Assembly: GCA_045837725.1 (NCBI GenBank) | Contig: JBEWZL010000027.1 | Coordinates: forward strand, 53,168-73,167 | Length of the DNA: 20,000 nt | Reading direction: 5' to 3' | Origin: Vermamoeba vermiformis | Taxonomy: Eukaryota | Part shown: piece after piece, positions 1,784 to 20,000 of the stretch | Layout of the letters: each line of letters starts with the position of its first letter | How positions within the stretch are numbered: position 1 is the stretch's first letter | Notes under the pieces: model-generated | Database searches by the model: none | What the model saw: only the letters and a program-made list of their open reading frames with translations | What the model was told of the DNA's origin: nothing | Translations under genes and position numbers: made by a program

Positions 1784-3989
1784 ATGAACGAATCACAATC
1801 TAATCGTATTTTGCCGGATTTTAAATGATTCTGTTTATTCATTGAACAGTTACTACGAGCTCAGCAGAAGTAAGATCGAGGCATCGAATGAAACAACAGT
1901 TTTCTCACTTGCATCGAGCAGAGAGCGGCCTTTTTGCTGCGTTGCCAAACTCTCAACGAGGTACATCTGCCGCTGATGGAACAAGGTGCGTAGTATGCTA
2001 TGGATATGATTATTTTAGCGATATACGCTCGTTATAGAGAGCCGTATCAAATTCCTGTTCCATTCGGTAGATCGCAAGTGTCGTTTTCACTGACATTCCT
2101 ATTTTATTCAGTTCCTTCTCGATATTCATCACTACAATTAAGGGATATGTAGGCGTGGGTATATTATCTATACCTTTTTCATTTTATCAAGGCGGTTTGG
2201 CGGTAAGAATACTATTTCCGAAATATTTCAAAAATGGATCTGAATCCGTTATTCAGTTTTCTCTGGCTGCCTACCTGTTGATTGGGTTCCTATCTCTTCA
2301 TACAATGCTCCTTCTAGTAGACTGCAAAAATGCTCTATTGACACGCGGCAGATCTGTTTCAACGTTTTCGGATCTTGTAAGCATTCAGCGAACAATTTTT
2401 TATTTGTCATTCAGCATATTAATAATCAATATGCAGGGAGGAGAGCTATTAGGGCGCTACGGGACTCATTTAATTGATATACTGCTTTTGGGTTCACAAG
2501 TACGAAATGAAATTACGCCAGCGTGTCAAAGTGTCAAAACTCATCGAGCATTTCAATAGATAGCTTATGCGACTTCAGTGGTCATTTTTGTGAGCACTAA
2601 TTTGGCTTCACTATTTGACTGGCCAAGCGGCGTTTCCGAGCTCGGCCAGAGGTGGATCTGGATGTCGCTCATTTTGCCGATCTTGATCCTGCTTTCGCTG
2701 CTCCGAAGTATCAAATGGCTTACCCCTATTAATGTCGTAGCCTTATTCATATTCATGTTTGGATTCATCGTTGTGTGTTATTTCGGTATGTAACCAGGGC
2801 AATGAGATTTTGTGGTTCATTTTGCTGATCTTGTCCCATTAAGGAATGTCTTATCGCATGTCCATCCCCGGAGATACCTCCGATGATATAGGTCGCGTAG
2901 AGATGTTGCACACGAATATTTTCGATTGCACTTCTACGATAGCTTTGGCAATTTACAGTTTTGCTGCAATTGGAATGGTGTTGCCTATGGAAGAGTCAGC
3001 TAAAGATAAGCACAGTTGTAAGTCATATAACTCACTCTATTTAATACCATATGATTTCTTATCTTTCGCTTCCATACAATAGTTCCCATTGTGTTCGCTG
3101 CTGGCACTTGGATCATGGTTGCTGGTTTGATAATGTTCGGTGCTATTGGATACGTTTGTTTTGGCGATCAGATTGAATCTAGTGAGTACATCTATATAAT
3201 AATAATTGCTTAAATAGTGTTGTGCATTTCACACAATTGTTACGTAATTCTAACAGACTTGCCTTTTATAGTAATATTAATGAATCTCGACGACACCTTG
3301 CACCAAACAGTCATGTTGCATGCGTTGAAGAAAACAATTCAAATCGGATTCATCATTGGAGCGTTGTTCGGATACCCCATGTGCTTGTGGCCAGTGATCC
3401 AACGATTGGAAAATATGATTTTCTTCAAACAACCACCCGCTATCGCTCAAAGCATTAATTATGTGACATCTGACGAAGAGGCACCAGCAGATTTAACACC
3501 GCGACACTCGATCCAAGAGACCGAATCCGTGAACAGCGAAACTTCTGAGCCTGAACCAGACGTTAAAGTGATTAAGACTCCTTTTCCATTGAAGTTCAAC
3601 TTTGGCTTGGAAATGAAGCGAAATTTCTTGCGCATTGGTCTCGTGTTCGGCACTGTCATTCTCGCCGTCGTAGTGCCGTCATTTGATCTGTTCATTTCAA
3701 TCATTGGCGCTACTTTTGGTACTTCCCTAATGCTCATCGTAAGTATAATATTACCATTACTAAAATTAAATCGGTGGATATTGACTTACTTCGTAAAAAG
3801 GTTCCTCCGGTCTTGCACATCCAAGTCCAAAAATTGATGATGAACGAGCCTGAACAATCTCGCTATAAGATCAAAGCAGTTATTATTAAGGACATTATTT
3901 TAGCTGTTTTTGGCGGCTTTGCGTTGTTCCTCTGCACTTCAGTCACCGTTCGAAACATTATTTTGCATTACGTCAAGCATACTGAGTAA
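1784..3989 (+). CDS. Amino-acid transporter, Aa_trans/AAAP family (SLC36/AVT3-like), multi-exon
   Basis: Spliced exons give FITTIKGYVGVGILSIPFSFYQGG, Q|IAYATSVVIFVSTNL, ALAIYSFAAIGMVLPMEESAKD, FGAIGYVCFGDQI, GYPMCLWPVIQRLE and VVPSFDLFISIIGATFGTSLMLI|VPPVLH, typical of the family; many hydrophobic helices. The start codon is less certain than the core. Confidence 0.9.
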
Positions 3990-4094
3990 TGTTCATATAA
4001 TGTTCCGTTTCCTCTTATTTATTCTTGTAAATAGTACCGCATATTATGTTAATAAATTGTTTTTGAACTTACGGACCGTTTATTATTTTTTGGT

Positions 4095-7000
4095 TCATTC
4101 GTCTTGATCCGCTTCTTCGGCACCATCAACCGGCAAAATTTGTTCAATATTGTTCTTGATAATCTCGTCGATGTTATATTCGCTGTCTTGTAAGGTATAC
4201 GCCATTTTAGGATCGCCTTTGACGAACACTAGAACGTTTTGATGATTTCTTGCAATTTTCTTGCTGCTATTGTACATCTTCTGCACGGTGAATCTTTTGC
4301 TGCCGAGGTGATTGACTAATATCAATTCATTATAATACTGCATGCCTGCATTTTCAAAGGCTCTAATTGTATCGGCAACGAATGGAATGCTTTGTCCGAT
4401 GCCTTGTCGATCACGGAAATCGCACACGACGAATACAGCAAATCGATTTTCTTTCAATAGTGCCACCGTTTGTTGAATAATTTTCTAAGAAATAAATTAG
4501 GTTATTTTTGTTTCCTAAAATTCAGTAATTACCGAATAATCATTGAAAAATTCTTCGTATGACGGCAATCGACTCAAATCATAAGGATCATTGCTGTATA
4601 CTTCCAAGTCTGTAATAATCATTAGATGATTGCTTAAAATGAGTTAGATCCGTACCATAGAAAGGTGGACACGAGAAAATGAAGTCAAATTTGTCTTCCT
4701 CTTTGATGTTGTTCGGATCTAGGTTATAATGGCCGGCAATAAGGTTTGTTATATTTCTGCTGTCGCCTTCAATCCATGTCGCAGGAATTTTGGTGCGGAT
4801 GCGTTGAAGTTGGTACTTGTTTTGAGTAATTTGGTCTTTTCTTAGTTCGACACCAGTATACTAAAAAATAATTAGCTTAGTTTCAGCAATAGTTATATTA
4901 TTTGCTTACTTCTAGTCCAAGACAGCTAGCAACAATGCCTCGAATAGATCCGGCGAATGGATCCAGGACCCTAATAACACCATCAGAATAGTGATACCAT
5001 ATTAATGATGAGCGAATATTACCTGCCACTTGGCGGACAAAACCATCTAAACGATATTTCGGCCAATGTCGGATCGAACACACTCACATCCGCGAACGTG
5101 AGGACTTTATCCCAATACTGCTCTTTAAACTCTTTTGTCGTTAATTTTCTACCGAGCTCGGCCTCTTTTTTGCTCTTTTTCTGGTAAAACTGCGCATCTC
5201 GCAGATGAGCCGCATGGATCGTGTTGCTGGTTTTGTGCATCTCAATACCACGACTCCCTTGAAGCAAAAATCATTAATAAGACACCCATTATATAGTAGG
5301 ACATACTGTTAATGCCAAGACTATGCCACATCTTATTTCGTTGCCGCCAGTTTCCTTGTCTGGTGTCCAAAAATGACTGCGGAACAACGAGAAATCGCTC
5401 AGCCAAAGAGCCCTTTAATTTCTCGTGCTCGGTGACTTTGATTTTCTGTCTTTTGTTTCGAATAGCCTTCGTCTTTTTCTTCGCCAAATCAACAACCTCG
5501 CCGGTCTCCAAGTCATAAAAATATTTATAGAAAAACTCTTTGACCTTCGGTTCAGCGTCTTCTCCATTTTTAGCAGCTAGTTCTCGTTTTCTTAGAACGG
5601 ATTTATACTCTTCTAAATGATAAATAGCGCATTTTTCGAGAATTGTGTCCTCTAAAGAAAAGTCAAAAATATTTCCAAATATGGTAATATTAATTCAAAT
5701 TACCGTAGTTCTCGTCAAAGTGATTAGAAGAGACTAATTCATTCGGCTGAAATTCTTCTAAGTCATCGTCTTCCCATTTGAAATGCTTGGCAGGTTCATA
5801 GAACCATCGAACAACAAGCTTTCGCTCATCTGTTTCGTCGTCAGAACTCAACTTAATTTTTCATTAATATTAACGTACCGTCCTCAATTTTAATGTCTTC
5901 AATTCGGCAAAACCAATTTTCATCACCGCCGTTGAGAATAACGTAATCTCCTTGTTTGTACTCGACTCCTTCGAGCATGAAGGATTTACTGCTCGATAAC
6001 TGAGCCATGAATGCTGAATAGCTAAATAAAATATTAATAACATGTCTACGAATTATTAATATTATTTACCTTTTAACTGGCACGTCTTCATCGTTTGTTT
6101 CGTAGAGTTGTCTGTCATCAATAAATTCTTCTTCCTTCTCGCCGTTGGTATTATTATTATTAACGTTCGTATTATTTATATTAATATTGTTTCGTGGCTT
6201 GTAAATCGTTGTCAACGGCTCTTTTGGCTTTGAATAAGGTATTTTTTGAACGGATCCGTTTTGCTTTGTACCTTTTGCTCTTGGTTTTGGCTTTTGCTCT
6301 TCCTCGTCGGGAGGCGGGATTTCTTCTAATTCGTCGTCGAGTTCTTCAATAATTATTTCTTTCTTTTTGCCCGCTTTAATTCTGCGAATTGCTTCTTGGA
6401 TCGGCGACATCTTGGTGCGTGGCTCGTCGTCACTAATTTCTTCGATTTCATCTGCTCCATCCAATGAATTTCGTTTCAATCTTCTTAATTTCTTCGATTT
6501 TGGCTTCTTCTCGAGTATTTCGTTCACGTCAATGTCGTCAGACACGTACTCGGGTGTTTCTAGCGTAAATTTTGTTTGTTCAGTCGAGGCTTGAACTTCG
6601 ACAGAATTATCCACTTCAATAACTTCTTTAGTCTCCTCTATAACTTCTTCTTTTGCTACGATCTCTTGAGGCTCTTCGACAACATCCATTTTTGCTGTGG
6701 TTTCTTTAGTCTCTTCGACAACATCTTCTTTTGCTATGATTTCTCGAGGCTCTTCGACATTAGCTCTTGTTTTTTCGTCGAGCTTTTGTACAGACTCTTC
6801 AACAACATTTTCTTTTGTTTTGGTTTCTTGAGGCTCTTCGCCATTAGTTTTAGTTTGTTCGACTTGGGGTTTTTGTACACGCTTTTCAACAAGCGATGCA
6901 GGGACCTCTGTAACCTCTTCAGCGCTTTGCTGCTTTGCACCAACAAAAAGTCGACCAAATAGTCCTTTGCTTGGAGGACTCTTTTCTTCCACTTTCTCAT

Positions 7001-7760
7001 CCGGAACTTTTGGATGCAGCTCCTCAACGGCTTCTTCGATATTACTATCGGTAATGATATCCTCAACACCATTTTCATACATTTCAGGCTCGATTTCCTG
7101 CACGTCTTCAATAAGGTCTTCAGTTTTCTTCGGTTTCGCACGTGGATGAGCTGCAGATCTGTTGACTCGTGGTGCTTTAGCCTTGACTTTTCCTGGAAAC
7201 AGTTCCTTCTCTCGTAAAGGAGGTGGCGGTGATGACTTTGCACGATACTTTTGAACGACGCTGCTCGTGGTTGTCAAGTTTGGAAGATCGCCAAGATCCT
7301 CCTCTTTCTTTTTTTGAAAAGCTAAATTCTTTTTATTCTGATTTGAATTTGCTTGGTTGTAAATCATTTTTTTTCCATTTGGAGAATTTGTTTTAGCCAT
7401 TTTACCAGGAGGCGACATTTCAATAAGATCCTCATCTGCAAAATTATTATGTTTATTAATACTTCGAAGGAAAACGCAATAATATGCATAAATTAAGCAT
7501 TTTATATGATTTTTTTTGCAAATAAATTAAACTTAAAAATCAAAAAAAGAAGATATTTATTTACCTTCTCGTTTTCGCTTTTTAGTGTCTGATCCGGAGT
7601 CTTGATCGCTATCTGCACTGCCATTGTTATTATTAAGACCGGGTTCTTCGTTAGAATCGTCAGATATCTCTATTTGAGAGCGCTCATCTCTACGAGCCCG
7701 TTGATCGCCATCCGGCAGAACCGCAGAGAGCAGCCTCCGAAACGAAAACATTTTAAACAT
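4095..7760 (-). CDS. BAH domain fused to a prokaryotic/phage-type DNA amino-methyltransferase (N4-cytosine/N6-adenine), ~1047 aa
   Basis: Ten exons (7760-7565, 7435-6070, 6021-5879, 5829-5704, 5651-5307, 5257-5023, 4970-4910, 4860-4656, 4609-4533, 4484-4095; 3144 nt) with GT-AG ends join with no stop. KKRKR NLS; Glu/Lys-rich disordered region; BAH (SFMLEGVEYKQGDYVIL..WFCRIEDI..LVVRWFYEP..NELVSSNHFDEN..TILEKCAI..FFYKYFYD); MTase (SLAERFLVVPQSFLDTRQGNW, SVFDPTLAE, VLDPFAGSIRG, YTGVELR, WIEGDS, FDFIFSCPPFYDLEVYS, HQNVLVFVKGDPK). Alternative ATG at 7751. Confidence 0.88.
6610..6840 (-). repeat. Degenerate 39-nt (13-aa) coding tandem repeat
   Basis: EEPQETKTKENVV ... EEPREIIAKEDVV / EETKETTAKMDVV / EEPQEIVAKEEVI / EETKEVIE in exon 2 of the BAH-MTase gene. 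Confidence 0.7.
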
Positions 7761-8539
7761 AAATAACACACAATATTTAAAATGCTCGGCGACTTGAAAC
7801 TCGTGGTGGAGGTGCCTGAAGCGAAGGAACAAAGCAACAAAAAACTTTTCAGTCAGAAATCAATCAAATCAGCAAATGCAACAACAATGATAATACTTAT
7901 TAAACAAAATGCCCAATGATAAACAAAACCGAAGCCTACCTTCGCTTAAAAGGCTGGATGAAGTAATTTAGGGCGAGATTTGGTTGCTTATGTTTGGCTC
8001 TTTTATTTCCGAAATATTTCAATTAATTTTGCGCAATTAATTTTATAGAAGATGAAGCTGTAGCAATTCAAATTTTACAAGTCCGTCATAAAAAAATCGG
8101 ATGTGCCTTTGTCACAAGGTAAGTTGTTTAACTTGGCAATAATTATTTTATTTTGCTAACTAACTATTTCGGTGTTAACGAATTTTATTAATTCTAAATT
8201 TAGGTTTGTCCGCTTGGTCGAATCTCAAGATCAGTTCACCATTTATCCGTTTGACCGGTCACCACTCAAGTTGCCCTCGTTATACTAAGAATTATGTCGC
8301 TTACTCGAGTGATAGCCGTTCTACTTGCTTTAAGTGTTTGGCTGCCGCTCCTCGAAACAAAAGGTAAGCGCCCAAACGGCTTTGCTGATTACTATTAATG
8401 GCAGATATATCGTCGTTAGGCCGCAAAATTATATATAGTGACCCTTTCAATATTTTAACAACGGATAGTTGCTGTTTATAGTGTTGGGAATAACCTCCCA
8501 AAAATTCAAAAATAATATCTATCAGGGCAAAGAGCTGGA

Positions 8540-9140: not shown

Positions 9141-11972
9141 ATGCAAAAACTAACTATTTTTTTGGCAGGCAGCGTAATTGAATTTGTCACGACCACTAAA
9201 ATTATAGATGCATCCGTGGCACACAATTTCAGTGAATTAGAAACGCGAGTATATAAGAATCCTAGCGCGGCAAACAATACTTATATCATATGCAACTTGA
9301 TGTTATCTACGTCTGGCGAAGTGATATTCGCTGAACGCAGTTTTCTTTCGGGAAGTGGATTGAGCGGAGACACGATCCAAAACTTCCCTAATGACACCTA
9401 TATCGACATCGACGTTGTAGATGGTATAGATGCGTGTCGTTATGTTGCACTAACCAATTCAGTAAGTTAAATTAATAACAATAAGCAAGATCTAATTGTT
9501 TAGGTATATTGGATCATGCCGGATCAGCAGTCCGTCCCTGCAACAAATTTTTCAATTATAGAAGCTACTACTTCTGGAAATAATGACACCATCGCTATCA
9601 TGTGCAAGCCGGTGAGTACTGCAATATTCGAGAATTACTACGTTAATTAACGTTACGTAAACATAGGACACCACGATTGTCTTCCCTTCACCGCCGTTTA
9701 ACTGGCCCGCGTTATATAACTGCAAGACATTAGACGCCGTATATAACCGTAAGTAAAAATGAAACGTATCTTGAAATCGAGATTTCCTTTTATGGCATTG
9801 TGAGTTTTCGGATCCGAATTATGTTAACGACTTCGTTTACAGCGTTTGATGACGTAGTTTATACCGCCCGTCACGACGGATTGATGGACGCACCAGATCC
9901 GGTGATAGTTGGGCTATCCAATGGCACGGCTTTTATCGCCATGCAAGGACTCGTGGGTGCTTTTTCTGGAGGTGGTGCGAACCCTAGCTTCGCTATATGG
10001 CCAAACGGAAACTACATGTTATGTGGAGAAGGCAAAGGTCTAACAGTAAGCTTGACACGTGTCATCAGATCTGCTTTCTAACAATGGATCCATCATTTAG
10101 ATTATTTGTAGCAATCAACATTCATACGCTGAAGTGCTTTGGCTTAATAGCACTGCTGAATATTACTACTCAAGGCCAGTCATTTCAGCGCTTGACGATT
10201 CACTGTTCGCTTTGAGTGCGCTCAAGACGTACTACAATGGCACCGCAGGCGAATACACCGTGCTCGTAATGAATCAACTATTCGGAGTGATTAACACATA
10301 CACGAAGCAAAATGTTACTATTGTGACACAACGAGCAATGGACGGCTACATTTTTGTCACCTACTTCACAAACGAAGCGCTCTCAATAGACGTACTTCAA
10401 TATAAAACGGTAAGTGTTTCGTGCTGAAGTTGACACGTGTCAATCTAATTGCACTCTCAGACTGCACCTGCCGCACCTGTTACAGCACCAGTGGCAGCTT
10501 CACCAGTTGTTCAGGCCCCCTCAGTAACGCCGAGCGAACTGCCAACCCCGTCGTTAAACTCACCACAATCGTCTGTAGTTGCTCCTGAAGGCTTATCTCA
10601 AGACGCTACGATCGCTGTAGCAGTCGTAGTGTCGGTCGTTGGAGCAGGCTTGGTGGCATTTTTCATCGTGTTTTTCGTGAAGAGAAACAACAAAGAAAAG
10701 AACAAGAAAGAGCAAATTGAAGACGAAGACAAGACCAAGTACGAGCCAATTCAACTCAACAATCCCGTGGCACTCACCAATACCACGAGCTCGTCTTCTG
10801 GAACGTTTGACGCGGAGTCCATTGACAAGCGCTTGAGAATCCCGTACAAGAGATTGAAGTTCATTAAAGAGATTGGCGCAGGTAGCTACGGAAAAGTATT
10901 CTACGGGTAAGTCTAATCTACTGCACAACGTGAAAACTTTGCACTTATATAACCTCCGTGTTTCAGTGAATGGCGTGGCGCTAAAGTAGCGATCAAAGTC
11001 AACAATCAGATTGCCGACATTGAAGGATTTTTGCACGAAGCAAAACTTACGCTGTAAGTACTACAATAGGCAACAATACCTCAGTCATTCAAACGACTTT
11101 TGTTTCACTGAATGGTTCGTTCATGAAAACTAATGACATTTACAGTGGCATTGCACCACACCCTAATCTCGTGCAAACGTTCGGCGTGAGTCTCGACGGA
11201 CCCAATCCGTGCATTGTGCTCGAGTTCTGTGGCGGTGGCAGTCTCGACAAGCTCGTGTTCGACAAGAAGACCAAATTGACCAATCAGCAGCGTAAAGACT
11301 ACGCACTGAAGATTGCATATGGACTGTTGCATCTTCATCAAAACAACATTGTGCATCGTGACTTGGCAGCACGCAACATCTTGGTACGTTATGCTAAGTG
11401 ACTTCAGTTTGACATTACTGACATATGAGTCTAGTTGACTACAGATGGCGAGCCTAAAATCACTGACTTTGGCATGTCACGTATCATTCGCGATGATTTG
11501 GCACAAGGCAAAACGAGACAAACCGTCGGACCAATGCGATGGATGGCACGTACTTTTGACCCAAAATTATAGCTTGGATATATTTACTTATGTCCTATAG
11601 GCCCCCGAAAGTCTAGTCGACCAGACTTATAGTTTCAAATCAGATGTTTGGACATACGGCATTTTAGGTGCGTAATTTTGGTTGCGTAACATTGGATCTG
11701 ACGCGAACGTTGAAGTGTACGAGTTGGTTGCTGGGGAAGAACCTCACGATGACGAAGACCAATTATACATTGGTGCTATGATACGCGATGAAGGATACAC
11801 CCCTGAGATACCTAAAGATTGCGATCCAGCGTTGAGGCACGTGATGGAGATCTGTTGGAAAAAGGATCCAAATGACAGACCCGTAAGTCAATTCTTTTAA
11901 TTATGAGCCAAAGAAATTAACTCTTTTTTAAAGCTTGTAGAGGAAATAGTCGATTATTTGCAAAACAACTAG
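9141..11972 (+). CDS. Single-pass receptor protein kinase with tyrosine-kinase-type motifs (5' end uncertain)
   Basis: N-glycosylation-rich ectodomain over several exons, P/S/T stalk, TM helix IAVAVVVSVVGAGLVAFFIVFFV followed by KRNNK, then IGAGSYGKV, VAIK, HRDLAARNIL, DFG, GPMRWM|APE, KSDVWTYG, CWKKDPNDRP, stop at 11970-11972. A branch site and acceptor at 9149-9168 suggest an unlocated upstream exon. Confidence 0.9.
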
Positions 11973-12193: not shown

Positions 12194-14041
12194 ATGGAGA
12201 AAGACGACCTATACGTTAGCCCTCAACTTGACACCGAGAAAAAAGATAAAAGGTACCGCATCCACTGAAGCTTAATTAAAATAATCGATTATAATATTCT
12301 AATATTCATAGGCAACGATTATGCAAGAGTGTGGTGGAAGGAAACCGTTGCCGTTACCGGAATAAATCTTGCTGGCATGCCCATCCAGCCAAGAAAAACC
12401 TGAAAAAATTCGAGTTTGATTCTTACCTGTTTTACTCGTTTAAAACAAAGTTAGAAAAGATAGACAAATTGCTTTTTTGGATTGAAAAATCCAGCTCTGC
12501 CCGCAACATCCTGACGTACGCCAAATCAGAGGAGAATGACATGGAGCAAGCGGTCGAAGAAGCCTTTAAACAGGTAGTAGGTACCAATGACATGGCTTAT
12601 GAAGCAATCAGCCGCTGCGTGACGAAAATTCGAGAAAATACCGGATGCGGCACATACGGATTGGAATTACCTGAAAATCCTTATGTCATTCGCGAACGAT
12701 ATAATAATAACCCTCAACATATCGTTAAAAGTATTAACAGCCCCGAAGCACTGAAATTTTGGACTGTCAAAAAGGGTTGTTCCGACATCCACCCACTAAA
12801 CAAAACAGATCCGAGAGTAAGTAGGAGAATTGTGGATTTATACCGGTGCTAAAATTAAACTAGCCAACACTCCGCGGTGACATCAAGCTCGGCGACACAG
12901 TAGAAGTTATTCCCAAAAGTAACAACCCAAAGCCAGTCTCAGCTCTCGACGTTTCATGCGGGACAAAAGAATTTGCTGCGCATATTCTAGCTGTAGTAAG
13001 ATTTAATTCTTAAACTGATAATTCTATACACGCTTAATTTACGACTGCTAACTTATTTATTCTAGGAAAAAGTTTATGCTCCCGACATTGTCTGCTCAGG
13101 CTCTACGCTATCGCAGATTCTAAACTGGTTGATGGAGCTTCGTTATAACTGGGACAGACATTTAATTTGTTTTGAAAAGATGGGAGAATCGGTTTGGGCG
13201 CATTGCTTGTACGCCGATCCGGATCACGTTCCAACGACACAATCTGAAGATATGTAAGTAACGTATATTACTATAATACAATGAACGATAAATTAACGAG
13301 GAAAACTAGTATGGCCTTCACTACATCTATCGAAGAATTCCTTTTAACGAACGTACAGAAAGATGAATTTATCTACGCTACGTCACCATTCACCTTCGGC
13401 GAGTTTAAGTTCTTAACGTACTATGAAGTGGATGGATTTCTCGGAGATCAACCTCTCGAGATCAAAAGTCAAAAAATCGTTCCCGATTTTTTAGGAAGGT
13501 AACTAATATTGTTATTATTTATCATCTAAAATAACTCTGGCTTAACGAAAACTTCTGTAGGAATTCAGCCGAGAGTATTAAGAATTCGTACATCTTTACT
13601 CCGGGTAAAAACTGCTTTCGATACCTTCAATACTCAAAAAAGACCCTGAATAAGGATGGCTCGGCTTACAAAATCGAGAGCGGAATGATAAGCGACAGCT
13701 TAAGCGAAAATGGCAAGTCAAACAACGACGCGCAACGTCCTATGAACGAGTTGCATGGGCTATTAGCCAGGGTTAAAAGCATGCTGAAAGAAGAGGATTG
13801 CCATGCAGTCGTCCTTCAATTGCAACCACGTGACGCGAAGATAAAGTTCAGAAAAATAAAGAAAAATGGAGGAATAATCAAAAAGGAAGAAGAAAAAGAT
13901 AATCAGATCAAGTCGAAAAAAGTGACCAAGACGCATAAAAAAGAAGCAAAAGCAAACAAGAACACTTCCTGCACGAATACATTTGCTTTACTCGCTGGCG
14001 AAGAGGACGCCGAGGATGAAGACGATTCCTTATCAGCATAA
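12194..14041 (+). CDS. CCCH zinc finger plus divergent RAI1/DXO-like PD-(D/E)XK nuclease-fold protein, ~517 aa
   Basis: Exons 12194-12252, 12312-12816, 12864-12995, 13066-13253, 13310-13498, 13561-14041 join in frame (1554 nt). C-x8-C-x6-C-x3-H (CKSVVEGNRCRYRNKSCWHAH); PDIVCSGSTLSQIL; IEEFL; FGEFKFLTYYEVDG..PLEIKS; basic then acidic tail. Confidence 0.65.
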
Positions 14042-14140: not shown

Positions 14141-16678
14141 CTAGGGGGTTGGGTTTAGTTTTTGCTCATCTGTATCTGTTCTGTGAGAACTTTTTGATTG
14201 CTCGGCCGAGGACGATGAGGAGGAAGACGACGATGATCTTTCCTCTTGTTGTTCTTCTTTTTTCTCTTCTTGAGCGGGAGTTGATTGAGATTGTTGCTTC
14301 ATTTTAGCTTCAAATTCGCTAAGTTTTTGTTTCAGATCTTGGTTCTCTTTGACGAGCTTGTCCACCTGCTCACGAACAGAAGAGTCGCTAATCTTATTAA
14401 TGGAGTTGCTCGAGGTAAAGCCAGTGTCTTGAGTGGTTCCAGTAGTGTGGCCAGGCGAAGTAGAGTTGTCCAAGGTGCGAATAAAGTAGATCTTGTTGGC
14501 GTACAAACTGATCACGGCAACGGTGTTACCAATAACGATGGCAAGGGATCGCACGATGAATAAGACCTCTCGGTTAACGGATCCAACAAATTGCAAGATC
14601 GTGATCAACACTGACAGCAATGCAATGTTGTAGATAATGAAGGCCAAGATCCGTGACTCGTTGTAAAGTTTTCGCTTCAGCTTGCGAATTCTGATGGCCA
14701 AGTAAAGTCCGAACATAAGGAGGACGCCGTTGGCTATCACAGCGATGATCGTGAAGGCAAAGCTGACGGTGTTCTCGGAGCATTTGAGGTACCAAGTTGA
14801 GGGTCTGAACTGATCCGGAGTTACCATATCAACACCAGCTTGATAGTAAGCAATGACGATGACAATAGCAGCTTCAGACAACAGGAATGCCATCAAAATA
14901 AGACCAAGTCTGACGTTCGAGATCTTGAACATCTTCAAAGACTGTTCGTTGTAGAGCATGTGGATTCTCCAAGACTTGATGAACAACGCACCAAACGTCA
15001 TCACAAAGCCAATGCCGAGCAAGATAGGTGTCAAGGCGCACGTGGCGATGTTGTTGCTGGTCAGTCTCCAAGTGAAGATGGTCGAGTTGCCAATCATAGT
15101 ACCGATCAAGATAAGCACCATGAATGAGAAAGTCGATGCGCGCATGACGCGGTGGTTGCGGTGCTTGATTGTGTAGATTAAGAAGGCTACTGAGATCAAT
15201 GAAGCAACAATGGACAAGGCGTAAAGACCCCATTCGGTTGACGTCAGATCCGAGTTGTATTCTCGTTCAGCCCACTACGAATAACATGAGGTTAGTAAAT
15301 ATGACGCATATATGACGATCAACACTATTATAATCACTTACAGTTGGCATAGGATAAACGAATTGAACTTGTTGAATTCTGCTGGGACCGGCGATTCCAA
15401 CGGCGGCGGTTAGGTTGGTGATCGATGGATCAGAGGGAGCAACGTCGATCTGTTGAGTAATGTTGGGCAAATATTGCAGCAAGATTGTTGAGCGGAGTTG
15501 TGAGTGATCAGAAGCGAATTGGAACGAGCCAAAGAAGCTGTCCAAGTTGAGGCGTTGAATGGCTTGAGCGAGCTCGTCGTCGTTCAAAGAGCCTGCAGAC
15601 GTGATAGCATTCGCTAGAATAAGGCCAGCAACCGTTCCAGTCGCTAATTGGGCAGTCGGAGCAGATCCAAATCTAGATTGAATTCTGCTGGAATAGTTTG
15701 AAAAGGAACCGAACCATGGATCGCTGAATTGAATATCTGCCGCACATTATTAATATCAATCATGACATTTCAATTCATTACATTACCTGGATAGAGCACA
15801 ACGTGGCCCGCAGTAAACACTAAAAGTTCGGGATCAACCACGGTCGGAAAATTAGAATTGATATTGCCGATAATTATTGCTTTTGGGGTATATTGATGTG
15901 TGTTCTTCATTTCATGCAGCAAGTAGTTCAAAGAAGGAGTATCTGTGCACAAAACCATCACATCCGCATCTTTTTCAATCATTCCTACTAAAGCAGATTC
16001 GAGAGCAGCTTTTGTGGTGTTGCTTGGTTCTGCGGTGAAAACTGCAGGTACGTGCCATTCGTCCAATACTTCCAAGGCATAGTCAGCAAGGTTGGCTTTG
16101 AAACCGGCGCATTGACCAGCATTGAACGGATCTGAATCAATCAACATGGTGACATTTCGAGCTCCGGCAACGCGCAAAGCTGACATAGAAGGTAGCATGT
16201 AACGAGAAGTTGAAGGATAAGCTGAGTAGGCTTTCGCAGTGCCCAAGTAAAATTCTTGCGCGCCAACGAGAGTGCCGAGGATGAGCCTATTGAAACTTTC
16301 AGACACTGTTCTGGCAATCAAACTGAAGCTAGTAGCAACGGGACCAAATACAACATCGACTGTAGGGTCGTTGTAGAGCTCGGTGTAAGTAGATGCAGTC
16401 GTGTTTCCGTCACCGTAGTTCTCGAGCACTTTGAGTGAGAATAACAGCCGAGCTACTGTTCCGTTCTCTAATTTGACTTGCCAATCATACTCGTTGTTGA
16501 TCCAGTCCGTAAAGAAGGTCAATCCGTTAAGCAAATCCTTTGATGCGCAGTTGAGGAAAGGAAAAGGAGCTTTTTGGGCCAAGCTGATACCAATATTGAC
16601 CTGAAGGTTCGTCTGTGCAATGACAGAGCACAATATTAAGCTCGCAAAAAATAGACTAAGCTGAAACGTGCTCTTCAT
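14141..16678 (-). CDS. Class C (GABA-B/Dictyostelium Grl-like) G-protein-coupled receptor, ~806 aa
   Basis: Exons 16678-15787, 15736-15342, 15274-14141 (2421 nt). Signal peptide MKSTFQLSLFFASLILCSVIA; type I periplasmic-binding-protein-like ectodomain (VDVVFGP..., LDSFFGSFQF); 7tm_3 motifs (VMRASTFSF, GFVMTFGALFIKSWRI, YNESRILAFIIYN); C-terminal coiled coil. Confidence 0.9.
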
Positions 16679-17551
16679 TCTTGTGGATGTTCGTTAAATG
16701 AATACGTATTGGAAGTAAATTGAAATATTCATTTTTGTGATTATAAACTTTTCTCGTTTTGCATTTCCATAACTGTCTTTGTTCATGAAAAAAAACACTC
16801 TAAATACGGAGAAACTATTATTAGCCGCACGTTGACGTTTGTTGTCTGAGATTCACCGGGAGGCTCACACTGATTACATAGGGCATACCCGCGTTTAAGA
16901 TACTTGATTGGCTTCAGGTCAGAAACTAATATCTAACGGCTAATTGAGCGGCTCGGAGACCTTCCGATGATGGCAAGAATCGTTAAATTGCAAAGCCTGA
17001 TTGAAATGGCAATAATGACAATGTTGTATATCGAAAGGAGAAACGACGTGGTGCATACTAACCGCCTCTGATTTACCATTTCACGAAGCGGAAGATCTGG
17101 TTCAATTCAACGACAACTTTTAAATTAATTTCAGCGTTAAATCGGCGAATTGCGAATTTAATATCTGTTACAGCGGAGATAGCTTATTTTTGTCACGTTA
17201 GATTGCCGACAAGTAACCGGCATACGAGAGATAGCCATAAAGATACTTTCTGGATCTTGCAAATCATTGCAAGTTTGAATAAGTAATAAAAATTAATCTT
17301 ATAACCGCATCCCGCATTAGTATAACCTCGAAGTTTAAATTACCGAGCACGAGATTAAAATCAAAAACGCAATTTATTTCCCGATTCAAAGGCCAGTAAG
17401 AATATAAATCACTAAATTTCTTTACAACGTTAGGATCTTAGTCCCAAGTCAAGTGCGGAGAAATAGTGTTTTGGAATTTTACACATCTGACAGTCGTCAC
17501 GAGTTACATAAATAAGCTCGTAATGACGACCACAATTAATCAAACGAAACA

Positions 17552-18094
17552 ATGGATAAGACGCAACTTAATATTGTCAAGAATAAGCTAATGATGGAAA
17601 CAATGCGGAGCGTTAATCTACGCATTAAATCTGAAAACGCTGATACAGCAATTTCGGATGAGTGTGAAAGACGCTGGGCATTATTATTCGACAATAGAAT
17701 ACAATCACAATACACTCGATCAGTCAGTTTGCACGATTTTATGCCCGAGGCTGTATTTATTTCCCGGTTCTACCCTCTCATCGCACATCTCAGCAAGTGG
17801 AAGTGCTTCAAAACACGATCAGTTGCCAAGGCGAGGAATTATCCTTTTCAAGTCACGACCACCTTCGAGATTACAAGTCATGAATTGGCCGCTGCACTTT
17901 TTCCAACTTTGTGTCAGATGCGATCGCACTCGTTATCAAACAATGCAATAATATTTTATTTCTTCGATACAATAGATGAACCTCTTAAACTTACGTACAA
18001 CTGGACAACACAAGAATTAGCAGTATCATTTTGTTATCGTCTTTTTCAGCGGCGCATAGATGAAAGAAACGAGATTGTATTAGTTGAATTGTAA
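17552..18094 (+). CDS. Intronless hypothetical protein, 180 aa
   Basis: Open frame with A-rich ATG context and globular-looking composition, followed by AATAAA; an in-frame ATG may lie slightly upstream. No family recognised. Confidence 0.55.
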   Translation: MDKTQLNIVKNKLMMETMRSVNLRIKSENADTAISDECERRWALLFDNRIQSQYTRSVSLHDFMPEAVFISRFYPLIAHLSKWKCFKTRSVAKARNYPFQVTTTFEITSHELAAALFPTLCQMRSHSLSNNAIIFYFFDTIDEPLKLTYNWTTQELAVSFCYRLFQRRIDERNEIVLVEL

Positions 18095-18134: not shown

Positions 18135-18900
18135 TTAAAAGGTCGATTCCATGAGCACATCCTGGATTGGCTCGATCCCGTCTTCTAGTGGCAAAATTAT
18201 TTCGTCATTGTAAAAATAATCATCAACCTTCTCGGAAAGTGGAGGCACATCAGATCTGTAGTTAAAACTAAGTAATTGAAAGCAGATTCGAGTCATCTTA
18301 CGTTTTTTTGTCTTTTCGTCTCTTCAATTGCTTTTTTGAGTACGCCTGCAGCTTTGGAAATGTCGCGGAATGATGCGGCGCTATATTCAACTTGAGGCGT
18401 AAAAATATTGTGCGATAGACGCGTTGGAGTATTTGAATAGAAGCTGCCTTGCGTGTTAATCCACCATTGTGACTTGTTGCTCGTTGAAATATCCGTCGGT
18501 GAAACTTATGTGTTGCTTCGAAGCCCTCTTGTGAATATTGCGCAACCGAGCCACCATGTTGGAGCAAAATTTGTGTTAGGTGGGCACACAGGATGTGGAT
18601 GTACGGCGTTACAGCTTCGAACCCAAATGTGTCGACGTAATTATCAAAAAAATTCTTCAATAAATCAGGAAGTCTGCCAATTCGGTCCAATATTTCTGAT
18701 TGCTTTGTTTGTAAAAGAAAATATTGAATCTTCTTCCAACTAATCCACACTTCATTGTATTTTTGTCGCCTTTCTTCCTCCCGAGCAATTGACAATTTGT
18801 CAATATTTTCGAAAATTAGCTTTAGCTCGTGTCCGCGTAGCTCGCCTTGTCTTTCAATTCTGCATGAGGGATCGCTATCTTTTTTTGTTTTTTTTAATCG
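18135..18900 (-). pseudogene. C-terminal half of a RAG1/Transib/Chapaev-related DDE transposase, interrupted by an insertion
   Basis: GELRGHELKLI...VTPYIHILCAHLTQILLQHGGSVAQYSQEGFEATHKFHRR parallels the RAG1 core (MNGNFARKLM...[39 protein letters not shown]), including two Zn-binding His and the catalytic Glu. A 46-nt GT-AG intron (18301-18256) adds an acidic last exon ending at 18135. Confidence 0.75.
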
Positions 18901-20000
18901 GAGGGTATTGTAAAAATGCATTTGGGTATATTTCATTTTTTTATTCAGAAAACCCATAGTACATGGAAGTGCAAGTTGAACAAAAAAAACGGCGCATCAA
19001 AATATGCCGTAGAGCTGAAGTTACAGCCTGTTTTCTTGAAAATCAACTGGGAAAACCCCATTTTACTCTAAGGCACCCATATTAGGAAGAGTTTCACTGG
19101 TTTGTAATCATGATTTGATGCTTTGAAGGTTGCCAGATCATGGTACACAAAAGAATTGGAGTCTGATGCTTACTTGAGTGTTCCTAGGGCAAATACAGTG
19201 CAAAAAGCAAGTATATAGCATGGAATAGCCTAAAAAGGAAATTAGTGGTGCATATCAGGGGTCCATGAGGTAGACATTTGCAAAACACTCCTCTTGGCAC
19301 TTGTGTGCATATGATCTGGCAATTACTAACAGTTTCCCTCCATCATTTATATGCCTTGCACTTCCCAGCTGAAAACTGAGTTTTCTACTTGCCTAATATA
19401 GAAATATAGTAAAGTGATCAGCAAATCGTTAGTAATTGATAAAAACTGTTGGGACAAGTTTCAACTTTAGTAACCATGGTGCAACAAATGCCAACTGCCC
19501 CATCATTTCCTAATTTGGTAATTACTGTCAAATCCCGAAATTTCAGTTAAAAAACAGAATTTACAAGGATTACGAGCAACAAGGAAGTCGTTAGTAATTG
19601 CCAGAATTTGGTGCGGCAAGTTCAAATCATTGTTTTTTGTAAAGGTCCACTTATGATGTCCATAACCTCTTGCCATATATGGTTATATTTGCTAGTTACA
19701 CTAACTGCCTGTTACCACCTTGGAGCATTCTGGCAAACAGTTAGTAATTGACAGAATTTGACGGGACAAGTTGGAATGGTATGTACATGCTGTAAAGCAT
19801 TGTTTATGCTGGCAACCTTCCTAATTTGGAAATTGCTAATGATTTCCGAATGGGGCAGCAATGATTGAAAATTTGCAGATTTTTGCAAGTGATTTCAAGG
19901 GCCAACATCAAATTTTATTAAAATCTTACAAAACATCGATTTTCCAACAATAATCCTCCCAATGCCCCCCAAATATACCCAAATGCATTTTTACAATACC
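18901..20000. mobile_element. Non-autonomous DNA transposon (~1.1 kb) with terminal inverted repeats; right end runs off the window
   Basis: 18904-18933 GGTATTGTAAAAATGCATTTGGGTATATTT is the exact reverse complement of 19971-20000 (30/30). Interior has no long ORF, is CpG-poor and carries internal repeats. Confidence 0.85.
19315..19850. repeat. Internal direct and inverted repeats of the TIR element
   Basis: GTTAGTAATTG...CAAGTT units at 19428, 19590 and 19740; an inverted copy at 19315-19330 is a perfect 16-bp match to 19590-19605; TTCCTAATTTGG at 19507 and 19818. Confidence 0.75.

Follow-up and report, generated by a model that had tools for sequence, protein, structure and literature searches.

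The locus raises the question of whether an amoeba carries a single nuclear gene that joins a BAH domain to a phage-type amino-methyltransferase (MTase), and what such a protein might do. We analyzed a 20,000-nt stretch of Vermamoeba vermiformis DNA (contig JBEWZL010000027.1, positions 53,168 to 73,167; hereafter the window), and the coordinates below are positions within it. An earlier note, made from the letters alone, had spliced ten exons into one frame of ~1047 aa, and this gene model was borne out, as were all of the motifs that it quoted. On the minus strand, from 7760 to 4095, ten exons and nine introns give a single 1047-aa frame; the joined exons amount to 3144 nt, that is, 1047 codons with one terminal TGA. 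All nine introns have GT..AG ends, with lengths of 46-129 nt and a GC content of 0.15-0.31. The parts of the gene are as follows.

4095-7760, minus strand: whole coding region; joined frame with a single terminal stop, colinear with the ortholog P0001
7565-7760, minus strand: exon 1, aa 1-65, with the KKRKR patch; joined frame
7436-7564, minus strand: intron 1, 129 nt; open frame, GT..AG ends, colinear with P0001; outside read cover
6070-7435, minus strand: exon 2, aa 66-520, disordered arm rich in E and K; composition and low pLDDT of the P0001 equivalent
6022-6069, minus strand: intron 2, 48 nt; joint in run X1
5879-6021, minus strand: exon 3; joined frame
5830-5878, minus strand: intron 3, 49 nt; joint in run X1
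5704-5829, minus strand: exon 4; joined frame
5652-5703, minus strand: intron 4, 52 nt; joint in run X1
5307-5651, minus strand: exon 5, aa 611-725; encodes the C-terminal part of the BAH domain, a linker, and the MTase's N-terminal helix (SLAERF, aa 692)
5258-5306, minus strand: intron 5, 49 nt; joint in run X1
5023-5257, minus strand: exon 6; joined frame
4971-5022, minus strand: intron 6, 52 nt; joined frame, outside read cover
4910-4970, minus strand: exon 7; joined frame
4861-4909, minus strand: intron 7, 49 nt; joined frame, outside read cover
4656-4860, minus strand: exon 8; joined frame
4610-4655, minus strand: intron 8, 46 nt; joined frame, unbridged by reads
4533-4609, minus strand: exon 9; joined frame
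4485-4532, minus strand: intron 9, 48 nt; joint in run X1
4095-4484, minus strand: exon 10; joined frame

In the alignment to P0001 the junctions of exons 3-10 are free of gaps. P0001 begins at the position of the second ATG (7751), an alternative start, and translation may begin there. None of nine exons, translated singly, matched Pfam above the cut-offs, for BAH or otherwise.

Next, we asked whether the BAH and MTase parts could belong to two separate genes. Exon 5 lies within one open frame (5242-5694) and has unbroken contig cover in run X1, with joints on either side; since the C-terminus of the BAH domain and the N-terminus of the MTase are both encoded in this exon, the fusion is independent of splicing. 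Contigs of X1, one public run that we presume, as a guess, to be RNA and whose contigs are short (depth 2.8-4.5), are 95-99% identical to the gene and skip five of the nine introns exactly. The introns skipped are 2, 3, 4, 5, and 9, the other four being uncovered. In a sister organism, genomic contigs hold exon-sized ORFs only, with ends at matching boundaries. P0244 and P0247, by contrast, stay open for 990 aa with the same architecture on contigs of 4.4-4.9 kb; on account of this difference P0244 and P0247 are read as spliced mRNAs. We concluded that BAH and MTase form one gene and not two, which is supported by the shared exon, the spliced contigs, and the full-length transcript ORFs of the sister organism, and which agrees with the original claim.

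The gene is transcribed and kept by purifying selection. Nineteen coding differences separate the gene from near relatives; 16 are synonymous and the other three conservative, with the differences spread across both domains. Exons 3-10 are 79-100% identical to P0001 (100% in exon 7) and the arm 53-66% (53% in exon 2), and the KKRKR patch is kept in spite of the arm's lower identity. The GC content matches that of the neighboring genes, and the neighbors in the window are eukaryotic genes. Domestication, as proposed in the earlier note, is supported by the nine introns, the GC content, the excess of synonymous differences, and the conserved basic patches. The note had also read an NLS and an acidic disordered arm at the N-terminus, and both have their counterparts in the sequence, the NLS being predicted by motif:

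7569-7583, minus strand: KKRKR, putative NLS, aa 60-64; motif, conserved in P0001
6624-6840, minus strand: tandem repeat of 39 nt (13 aa), 5.4 copies, inside the arm

Exon 2 is rich in E (16.5%) and K (12.5%) and contains short conserved islands and a second basic patch, and pLDDT is below 50 across most of residues 1-470 of P0001, the equivalent of the arm.

The BAH domain had been placed at about 5985-5490, and it was found at nearly the same position:

5497-5975, minus strand: BAH domain, aa 537-662, over exons 3, 4, and 5, with introns 3 and 4 inside
5913-5915, minus strand: predicted cage residue W557 (in ENWFCRI, aa 555), aligned where BAHCC1-type BAHs have their first cage Tyr
5798-5806, minus strand: predicted cage residues W577 and Y579 (RWFY, aa 576), kept in four of four fused proteins
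5714-5722, minus strand: H605 and D607 (SNHFDEN), aligned with H.D of BAHCC1

Against a profile built from seven non-fused, Pfam-confirmed BAHs, the spliced window protein scored 61.7 bits (E 6.8e-19, aa 537-662), and the best of 200 shuffled sequences reached 10.0 bits. The ortholog P0001, with 79-88% identity to the window protein across the BAH exons, matches Pfam BAH (PF01426) with 45.4 bits (cut-off 30.8, E 8.9e-12). In the P0001 model, beta strands are found at residues 473-520 and 593-597, with a BAH pLDDT of ~40-70; the fold-search lists for the whole model were filled by matches to the MTase domain. The nearest solved BAHs by sequence are BAHCC1, AIPP3, SHL, and EBS, as weak matches (E 7e-4 to 0.06 vs PDB). 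Among 1.84 billion representatives, the BAH of the fused proteins drew 14 matches at E <= 0.001, and BAH-PHD proteins of one green alga and of choanoflagellates are among the closest BAHs in the database; the window protein is without a PHD finger and, unlike the H3K27me3 readers, has Trp and not Tyr at cage position 1.

Does this BAH domain read methyl-lysine? The aromatic residues of ENWFCRI and RWFY had been assigned to the methyl-lysine cage, and in the alignment W557, W577, and Y579 do fall on predicted cage positions. H605 and D607 are kept in all four fused proteins, and the cage and the His/Asp positions are shared with the H3K27me3 readers (BAHCC1, BAHD1, EBS, SHL, AIPP3, and fungal EPR-1/BP1). 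According to a BAH review, from which the cage rule is taken, the His/Asp positions of H3K27me3-type BAHs read Ser28 and Pro30 of H3. Judged by sequence, the domain matches the rule for H3K27me3-reading BAHs. The protein could instead be chromatin-bound through a BAH that reads no methyl-lysine and contacts a partner protein, a histone tail without modification or the core of the nucleosome. The same review credits BAH domains with diverse substrates, among them histones that carry no methylation, the nucleosome core, and further proteins. Such a reading draws on the Trp at cage position 1 (Tyr in H3K27me3 readers), the few close BAH relatives, and the low-confidence BAH model, but three aromatic cage positions with His/Asp persist in four of four fused proteins from two lineages and the solved BAHs closest to it in sequence read H3K27me3; we consider it unlikely.

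The same architecture was sought elsewhere, as had been suggested, and was found in P0260, which represents a second lineage with the same BAH-MTase fusion (colinear, 39% identity over 494 columns, E 2e-115; 68 bits vs Pfam BAH). A single clade unites the fused MTases (SH-like 0.981 with 353 tips, SH-aLRT 100 with 44 tips), and the two fused lineages are just ~30% identical in the BAH domain. From these comparisons the fusion appears to be old and retained in at least two deeply diverged lineages. It is rare, but this genome is not its only holder.

We then turned to the origin and the motifs of the catalytic module, which comprises the following features:

4143-5451, minus strand: amino-methyltransferase module, aa 678-1032, exons 5-10; family HMM
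4949-4963, minus strand: motif I, DPFAG, aa 807-811; the next residue is S, against G-S in the family
4660-4674, minus strand: motif IV, S-C-P-P-F, aa 887-891

Residues 678-1032 match positions 4-286 of the 304 in the family HMM with 343 bits and keep 63 of 72 near-invariant family positions. P0001 and P0260 match the phage families phrog_12517 and phrog_498 with E-values of 6e-60 to 3e-86 (P0001: 7e-82 and 6e-60, respectively), and exon 10 of the window alone matches phrog_498 at E 4.4e-30. Thirty phage records match the MTase part only, with 31-51% identity to phage genes, and ParB-MTases of the same phrogs adjoin TerS-TerL-portal in two of two loci examined. The motifs that the earlier note had attributed to amino-MTases of phages and prophages (among them SLAERF at aa 692 and HQNVLVFVKGDPK at aa 999) are the consensus of the phage and prophage relatives, many of which are fused to ParB. 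This sequence evidence places the MTase, by descent, in the ParB-terminase-locus family of phages (phrog_498/phrog_12517). Pfam detected no ParB domain in P0001 or P0260, and the window neighbors are eukaryotic, with no terminase neighborhood; the gene therefore descends from the phage family and stands outside the phage system.

The order of the motifs also stood: DPFAG at aa 807 precedes SCPPFY at aa 887, and a regular expression finds the same unpermuted order, I before IV, in 226 of 238 relatives. The motifs themselves are not canonical, as motif IV reads C-P-P-F after S and motif I is short of one Gly. A canonical motif IV, (D/N/S)-P-P-(Y/F/W), is ruled out by its first residue, Cys (C888). 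This Cys is family-wide (200 occurrences of SCPPY, 29 of TCPPY, 5 of TSPPY). N4C enzymes have a Ser there, with which Cys is isosteric. A Tyr-to-Phe change in motif IV and the loss of one motif-I Gly are peculiar to the window/P0001 lineage; Tyr is found in 100% of 348 prokaryotic modules, and both changed positions are 99-100% conserved there. P0260 retains the canonical family motifs. Pfam N6_N4_Mtase (PF01555), which is carried by 118 of 120 relatives among the matches listed, was reached by P0260 (29.2 bits, above the cut-off of 26.7) and approached by exon 10 (17.1 bits), and no match was obtained for P0001 at E <= 0.1; since PF01555 is built on the permuted order, its match to an unpermuted module splits.

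Is the enzyme active? A 2019 paper described ParB-MTase activity as ‘yet to be confirmed by experimental data’; our literature search found no published activity or binding data for members of the phage family. Hia5, a DPPY enzyme, lost its activity when the first motif residue was replaced by Ala, and for this reason the chemistry of the Cys form is uncertain. The MTase of the window lineage might be weakened or dead and the protein a chromatin- or DNA-binding scaffold or regulatory partner. The lost Gly and the Tyr-to-Phe change point that way, as does the count of near-invariant family positions kept, 63 of 72 against a prokaryotic mean of 70 (5th percentile 65), and Iyer et al. (2016; PMC4738411) describe inactive paralogs in other eukaryotic amino-MTase clades. 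Against it, all other motif residues are kept, including C888, P889, P890, D807, F809, H999, Q1000, and N1001, the MTase exons are under purifying selection, and the motifs of P0260 are those of the family. Moreover, the general (D/N/S)PP(Y/F) motif accepts Phe as its aromatic residue. We judged a weakened or dead enzyme to be quite unlikely and infer that the MTase probably acts on DNA.

The substrate could also be RNA (chromatin-associated, nascent, or tRNA). In the ortholog model the MTase has a pLDDT of ~84-98, and its best fold matches are TrmN, aTrm11, Trm11, and Trm14 (Z 17.8-18.4, rmsd 2.1-2.8 Å over 178-184 residues), the tRNA m2G enzymes lying ~2 Z above generic MTases, with Foldseek concurring. 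The relatives have weak Pfam matches to the RNA-MTase families Methyltransf_15 and Cons_hypoth95, and captured amino-MTases have repeatedly shifted to RNA, as described by Iyer et al. (2016; PMC4738411). The fold aligners are sequential, so permuted DNA amino-MTases cannot be matched by them. The family profile, in turn, favors DNA enzymes: TTHA0409 (E 9e-12), 8s9n/8s9m (N4C-MTase, 4e-6), CcrM, M.MboIIA, and M.PvuII are matched in two swapped pieces, compared with 4e-4 for aTrm11. TrmN, Trm14, and Trm11 (tRNA guanine-N2 MTases) share the unpermuted amino-MTase core, but the window MTase is 16-19% identical to them, is without THUMP, and is more weakly related to them by profile than to DNA amino-MTases. 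Pfam found no RNA-binding domain in P0001, BAH being the sole other domain, and the family belongs to a setting of DNA packaging in phages, with fusion to ParB. An RNA target is improbable on this balance. A non-canonical DNA mark, such as guanine methylated at N2 or the product of an initial hypermodification step, is very improbable: the family-wide Cys in motif IV, the absence of CPPY from papers on phage methyltransferases in a full-text search, the fold closest to guanine-N2 MTases, and the fusion of many prokaryotic members to PF00291 (PLP-dependent enzyme) or PF05118 (Asp/Arg-hydroxylase-like) speak for it, but the eukaryotic proteins are without PF00291/PF05118 and the other AdoMet-MTase motifs are ordinary.

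The reading we prefer, and regard as moderately probable, is that of a nuclear gene in which an amino-MTase captured from phages (the C-terminal 355 residues) carries BAH in place of ParB and serves mark-guided DNA methylation. In phages the enzyme is joined to ParB or lies next to it, and its presumed role is the modification of DNA during packaging. In the amoeba, the basic patches would import the protein into the nucleus, the BAH cage (W557, W577, and Y579, with H605/D607) would dock on trimethyl-lysine nucleosomes, most likely with an H3K27me3-like mark, and the MTase, with AdoMet, would methylate the exocyclic amine of a nearby base, at N4 of cytosine or N6 of adenine. It is doubtful, though conceivable, that a Polycomb-type BAH steers the CPPY/F MTase to place N4-methylcytosine on facultative heterochromatin; if true, this would be a second, independent eukaryotic origin of 4mC after bdelloid rotifers, via uncharacterised chemistry.

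Several known systems resemble the BAH-MTase protein in part. Phage ParB-Tls MTases share the N-terminal helix, a variable insert, the unpermuted motif order, [S/T]CPP[Y/F], and the C-terminal HQNVLVF-KGDPK block, and the window gene differs from them in the BAH domain, the NLS-like arm, the nine introns, the Phe of motif IV, and the loss of one motif-I Gly. DNMT1, plant CMT3/ZMET2, and Neurospora DIM-2 combine BAH with a C5 cytosine methyltransferase in one polypeptide. They follow the same logic of BAH plus DNA MTase with a catalytic domain of other chemistry and family; Pfam reported no C5-MTase family in P0001. In Iyer, Zhang and Aravind (2016; PMC4738411), the phage ParB-Tls MTase type is captured in eukaryotes once, as the FHA-fused amino-MTases of haptophytes (Emiliania; Group-1 clade 6). 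Compared by that description, clade 6 is likewise an unpermuted ParB-Tls capture with an N-terminal eukaryotic signaling or chromatin-type domain, FHA there and BAH in the window protein. Pfam reported no FHA in P0001, with BAH as the only domain, and no named haptophyte protein was among the best 120 matches listed in family searches. Bdelloid N4CMT, as described by Rodriguez et al. (2022; PMC8885841), is a permuted N6_N4 MTase with a C-terminal chromodomain. It is alike in being an intron-bearing bacterial amino-MTase joined to a methyl-lysine reader, with a proposed link between histone mark and DNA amino-methylation; its catalytic motif comes before the AdoMet motif, whereas the window protein has I before IV, an N-terminal BAH, and CPPF. 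Identity with N4CMT is ruled out by the unpermuted order and the N-terminal BAH. The claim of an independent domesticated acquisition accordingly holds with respect to the rotifer enzyme and has to be narrowed otherwise, as the fusion exists in a second lineage and the phage family had been reported in haptophytes earlier.

The rotifer N4CMT, the only experimentally tested eukaryotic case of a captured bacterial amino-MTase coupled to a histone reader, altered the view of eukaryotic DNA marks as essentially 5mC. The gene described here repeats that logic independently, with another reader (BAH), another topology, and another donor family, the MTases of phage packaging loci. Since selection has maintained it in two or more lineages that diverged deeply, it can be cloned and tested directly. 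If the enzyme is inactive or RNA-directed, the gene is still a clean replacement of ParB by BAH after phage-to-eukaryote transfer. Two questions are opened: whether chromatin-guided DNA amino-methylation is more widespread in eukaryotes, and what the function of the phage CPPY MTase family is. This rare fusion could write bacterial-style DNA marks at sites directed by chromatin.

The earlier note had claimed a single ten-exon frame of ~1047 aa, and this was recovered: joining the minus-strand exons from 3800-8100 gave 3144 nt, i.e., 1047 codons and a single terminal TGA. All nine introns start with GT and end with AG (46-129 nt, AT-rich, GC 0.15-0.31), and all the motifs quoted in that note were found in the translation, at aa 60 (KKRKR), 555, 576, 692, 807 (DPFAG), 887 (SCPPFY), and 999.

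Exons of the joined frame (coordinates in the window)
7760-7565, minus strand, exon 1
7435-6070, minus strand, exon 2
6021-5879, minus strand, exon 3
5829-5704, minus strand, exon 4
5651-5307, minus strand, exon 5 (open frame 5242-5694)
5257-5023, minus strand, exon 6
4970-4910, minus strand, exon 7
4860-4656, minus strand, exon 8
4609-4533, minus strand, exon 9
4484-4095, minus strand, exon 10

Two in-frame ATGs, three codons apart, are found at 7751-7760; the true start may be the second one (7751), because P0001, a 990-aa database ortholog with the same architecture, begins there (MFSF...). The acidic arm encoded by exon 2 contains a 39-nt (13-aa) tandem repeat at 6624-6840 (~5.4 copies, 66-75% matches) and a few short islands near-identical to P0001, e.g., around two basic patches. 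Judging from their predicted products, the neighbors are ordinary eukaryotic genes, each split by introns:

2071-3837, plus strand, Aa_trans amino-acid transporter
10449-11401, plus strand, single-pass receptor-type Tyr/Ser-Thr kinase
14141-16693, minus strand, family-3 GPCR with ANF-receptor/periplasmic-binding ectodomain

The long open frames at 12295-12852 (plus), 17540-18094 (plus), and 18298-18996 (minus), of 184-232 aa, matched no Pfam family at E <= 0.001. Bacterial contamination was ruled out by the nine spliceosomal-type introns, the eukaryotic neighbors, and the GC content of the gene (0.36-0.40), which matches that of its surroundings.

Exon 5, one open frame, encodes the C-terminal part of the BAH domain, the linker, and the first conserved MTase helix (SLAERF), so the fusion is independent of any splice. 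P0001 aligned end to end with the window model, gap-free at the exon 3-10 junctions; exons 3-10 are 79-100% identical, the exon 2 arm 53%. On genomic contigs, the largest 581 kb, its cluster has pieces the size of single exons: exon 2 is represented by P0240 and P0245, and exon 6 by P0239, P0241, and P0243, which stop at the window's exon boundary. P0244 and P0247, which share 99.7-99.9% identity with P0001, are uninterrupted 990-aa ORFs on 4.4-4.9 kb contigs; since the gene is split in the genome, such ORFs imply spliced mRNA. Contigs of the public run X1 (95-99% identical to the window), short, 2.8-4.5 deep, and RNA by guess only, cover 5048-6226 without a hole and skip introns 2, 3, 4, 5, and 9 exactly, all bounded by CT..AC as read on the plus strand. 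Introns 1, 6, 7, and 8 had zero cover. The raw RNA runs X6, X7, and X8 gave 4, 6, and 4 matching reads, mostly 90-95% alike, and were set aside as too few. Two separate genes were ruled out by exon 5, common to BAH and MTase, and by the transcripts (X1 junctions and 990-aa sister ORFs), which upholds the proposed single gene.

Selection was gauged by counting synonymous and non-synonymous differences between the window and matching reads or contigs. Among 19 single-base coding differences, which fall in BAH exons and MTase exons alike, 16 are synonymous third-position changes, and the others, L to M, I to V, and V to I, are conservative. By this measure, the window MTase exons are under purifying selection. 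A metagenome scan with P0001 found no orthologous genomic DNA, and the 47 loci from an exon 10 scan were all of <=54% identity and bacterial or phage-like.

We favor, with somewhat better than even confidence, a chromatin-targeted DNA amino-methyltransferase as the most likely reading of this protein. The BAH domain was confirmed by sequence profiles: Pfam BAH scored 45.4 bits in P0001 (residues 480-601, cut-off 30.8), and the spliced window protein reached 61.7 bits (aa 537-662) with a profile built solely from seven non-fused BAH proteins, vs. 10.0 bits for the best of 200 shuffles. When the BAH segment was run with HMMER against 1.84 billion representatives, only 14 proteins came up at E <= 0.001, three of which are close relatives' exon ORFs running on into the same introns. 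A Pfam scan of ten of the 14 detected BAH in eight, two of them BAH-PHD and one (P0260, from a second, deeply diverged lineage) BAH plus MTase; the clusters have named members from a green alga and choanoflagellates. P0249 (818 aa, highly repetitive, His/Gln/Thr-rich) matched the BAH query in seven stretches (E 4.5e-13) and has no Pfam family; its match is probably a compositional artefact. The nearest solved BAH domains by sequence are those of BAHCC1, AIPP3, SHL, and EBS. In these H3K27me3 readers, according to a 2026 review, the cage consists of a Trp at the back flanked by two Tyr, and H3 Ser28/Pro30 are read by a His together with a nearby Asp. The window residues at the cage and specificity positions are W557, W577, Y579, H605, and D607, and all five are kept in 4/4 fused proteins. 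The aromatics of ENWFCRI and RWFY, predicted to lie at the methyl-lysine cage, align with its positions (W557, W577, and Y579). That the BAH domain targets the protein without reading a methyl mark is, with these residues kept, unlikely.

None of nine single-exon translations reached a curated Pfam cut-off. Exon 10 alone found 847 proteins at E <= 0.001; among the best 120 of these, 118 carry Pfam N6_N4_Mtase, and 33 of the 120 also carry ParB_N. A family HMM of 304 positions, made from 32 short members, matched window aa 678-1032 at positions 4-286 with 343 bits. P0001 and P0260 matched phrog_12517 and phrog_498 ('DNA methyltransferase') at E 6e-60 to 3e-86, and window exon 10 matched phrog_498 at E 4e-30. 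Thirty phage records showed 31-51% identity, with matches confined to P0001 residues ~616-975, and at 2/2 relatives' loci examined the gene order was regulator, ParB-MTase fusion, small terminase, large terminase, and portal. These results substantiate the phage/prophage-type, ParB-linked assignment that the earlier note had made. Atlas search leads (scores <0.9) were phage N6_N4 MTase clusters. The window MTase falls in the 'ParB-Tls locus' class described in the main text of Iyer et al. (PMC4738411); according to a Paracoccus virome study, ParB-MTase activity had not yet been confirmed by experiment. P0121, P0122, and P0279 (417-427 bits) were rejected as closer relatives: they are tandem double MTases, so their scores are additive. 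Each has two complete family modules in 716-724 aa and a C-terminal Cys/His-rich tail (the P0279 cluster has 25 members). Nor is the insert that separates the N-helix from motif I a rare shared trait, its length varying widely across the family.

The family motif IV is [S/T]-C-P-P-Y (SCPPY 200, TCPPY 29, and TSPPY 5 occurrences; window 4660-4674), so a Cys occupies the usual Asp/Asn/Ser position of amino-MTases; N4C enzymes typically have Ser there, with which Cys is isosteric. A full-text literature search for a CPPY motif in phage methyltransferases found no paper. The main text of Iyer et al. (PMC4738411) places the ParB-Tls family among N6A-MTases by prediction. The Hia5 group of phage non-specific adenine MTases, with m6A proven, is a separate group with DPPY rather than CPPY/F; with this motif, and as its paper says nothing of ParB, its activity is not transferable to the ParB-Tls family. 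Among 72 columns conserved at >=90% in 348 prokaryotic/phage modules (mean 70.0 kept, 5th percentile 65), the window keeps 63, P0001 63, and P0260 65. Two of the nine window changes hit catalytic motifs: Phe replaces the motif IV Tyr that all 348 modules (100%) have, and one of the two motif I glycines is missing. P0260 keeps the Tyr and both glycines. A weakened or dead MTase acting as a scaffold would account for such changes, and we give it a slim chance. Because the changes are common to P0001 and the exons are under purifying selection, the window protein is functional, whether or not as an enzyme.

Motif I precedes motif IV in 226/238 relatives by regular expression (no motif I match in 11, no motif IV in 1). 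Against solved beta-class DNA amino-MTases the family profile matched as two swapped pieces (TTHA0409, 9e-12; 'DNA cytosine-N4 methyltransferase' 8s9n/8s9m, 4e-6 and 9e-6; also CcrM, M.MboIIA, and M.PvuII), which makes the ParB-Tls family their unpermuted cousin. An AlphaFold model of whole P0001, from a 66-sequence alignment, had a mean pLDDT of 55.5 (~84-98 over ~640-970, ~40-70 over BAH, and <50 over most of 1-470). Its closest folds are the unpermuted tRNA guanine-N2 amino-MTases TrmN, aTrm11, Trm11, and Trm14 (Z 17.8-18.4, rmsd 2.1-2.8 A, 178-184 residues), ~2 Z above generic class-I MTases; Foldseek concurs. RNA as the target, to which this fold likeness would point, is improbable beside the profile matches to DNA enzymes. 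Many prokaryotic/phage members (P0123, P0125, P0127, P0168, P0173, P0187, and others) are fused to PF00291 (PLP-dependent enzyme domain) or PF05118 (Asp/Arg beta-hydroxylase-like domain), and one phage relative's MTase gene adjoins an S-adenosylmethionine decarboxylase gene; these associations hint at a possible role of the phage family in more elaborate DNA modifications than methylation. Non-canonical chemistry in the window MTase itself is very improbable.

The search for the same architecture elsewhere yielded the second fused lineage: P0260 (535 aa; its cluster has a 617-aa member) shows BAH, linker, insert, and MTase in the same order and is colinear with P0001 (39% identity, 494 columns, E 2e-115). 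Among the best 120 of 847, of 209, and of 3832 significant matches, P0001 and P0260 were the only BAH-bearing proteins; their clusters are confined to JGI/IMG and Logan assemblies. The five fused sequences grouped as a single clade (SH-like 0.981) in a FastTree phylogeny of 353 MTase modules, with a weakly supported sister group (0.574) that includes Roseibium 'gp77'. A fast IQ-TREE run on 44 sequences (4 fused, the 22 nearest, and 18 drawn at random from the other 326 prokaryotic/phage modules; P0242 left out as near-identical to P0001) gave the fused clade SH-aLRT 100. The fused forms stood as one clade against phage/bacterial homologs, but with the midpoint root on the eukaryotic stem, rooting did not show nesting within prokaryotes. 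The case for the direction of transfer is therefore one of distribution and context: thousands of prokaryotic/phage members in a conserved phage context, vs. two intron-bearing eukaryotic clusters. A single capture, with ParB swapped for BAH and the two lineages diverging afterwards, would be the simplest history.

Bdelloid N4CMT has the same outline, a captured bacterial amino-MTase with a methyl-lysine reader, whereas its MTase is permuted and its chromodomain C-terminal; that paper (PMC8885841) does not contain the word BAH. Many eukaryotic amino-MTase fusions are catalogued in the main text of Iyer et al. 2016 (PMC4738411), including a haptophyte clade of the same phage ParB-Tls origin, but haptophyte-restricted and FHA-fused; BAH is absent from that main text, and a BAH form could be among the architectures and sequences given in the Supporting Information. 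A literature search, with subscription journals mostly outside its coverage, found no description of a BAH plus N6_N4_Mtase architecture. As a chromatin-targeted DNA amino-methyltransferase, the protein would be nuclear, its BAH domain would dock on a Kme3-marked nucleosome, and its MTase module would methylate N4-C or N6-A nearby.
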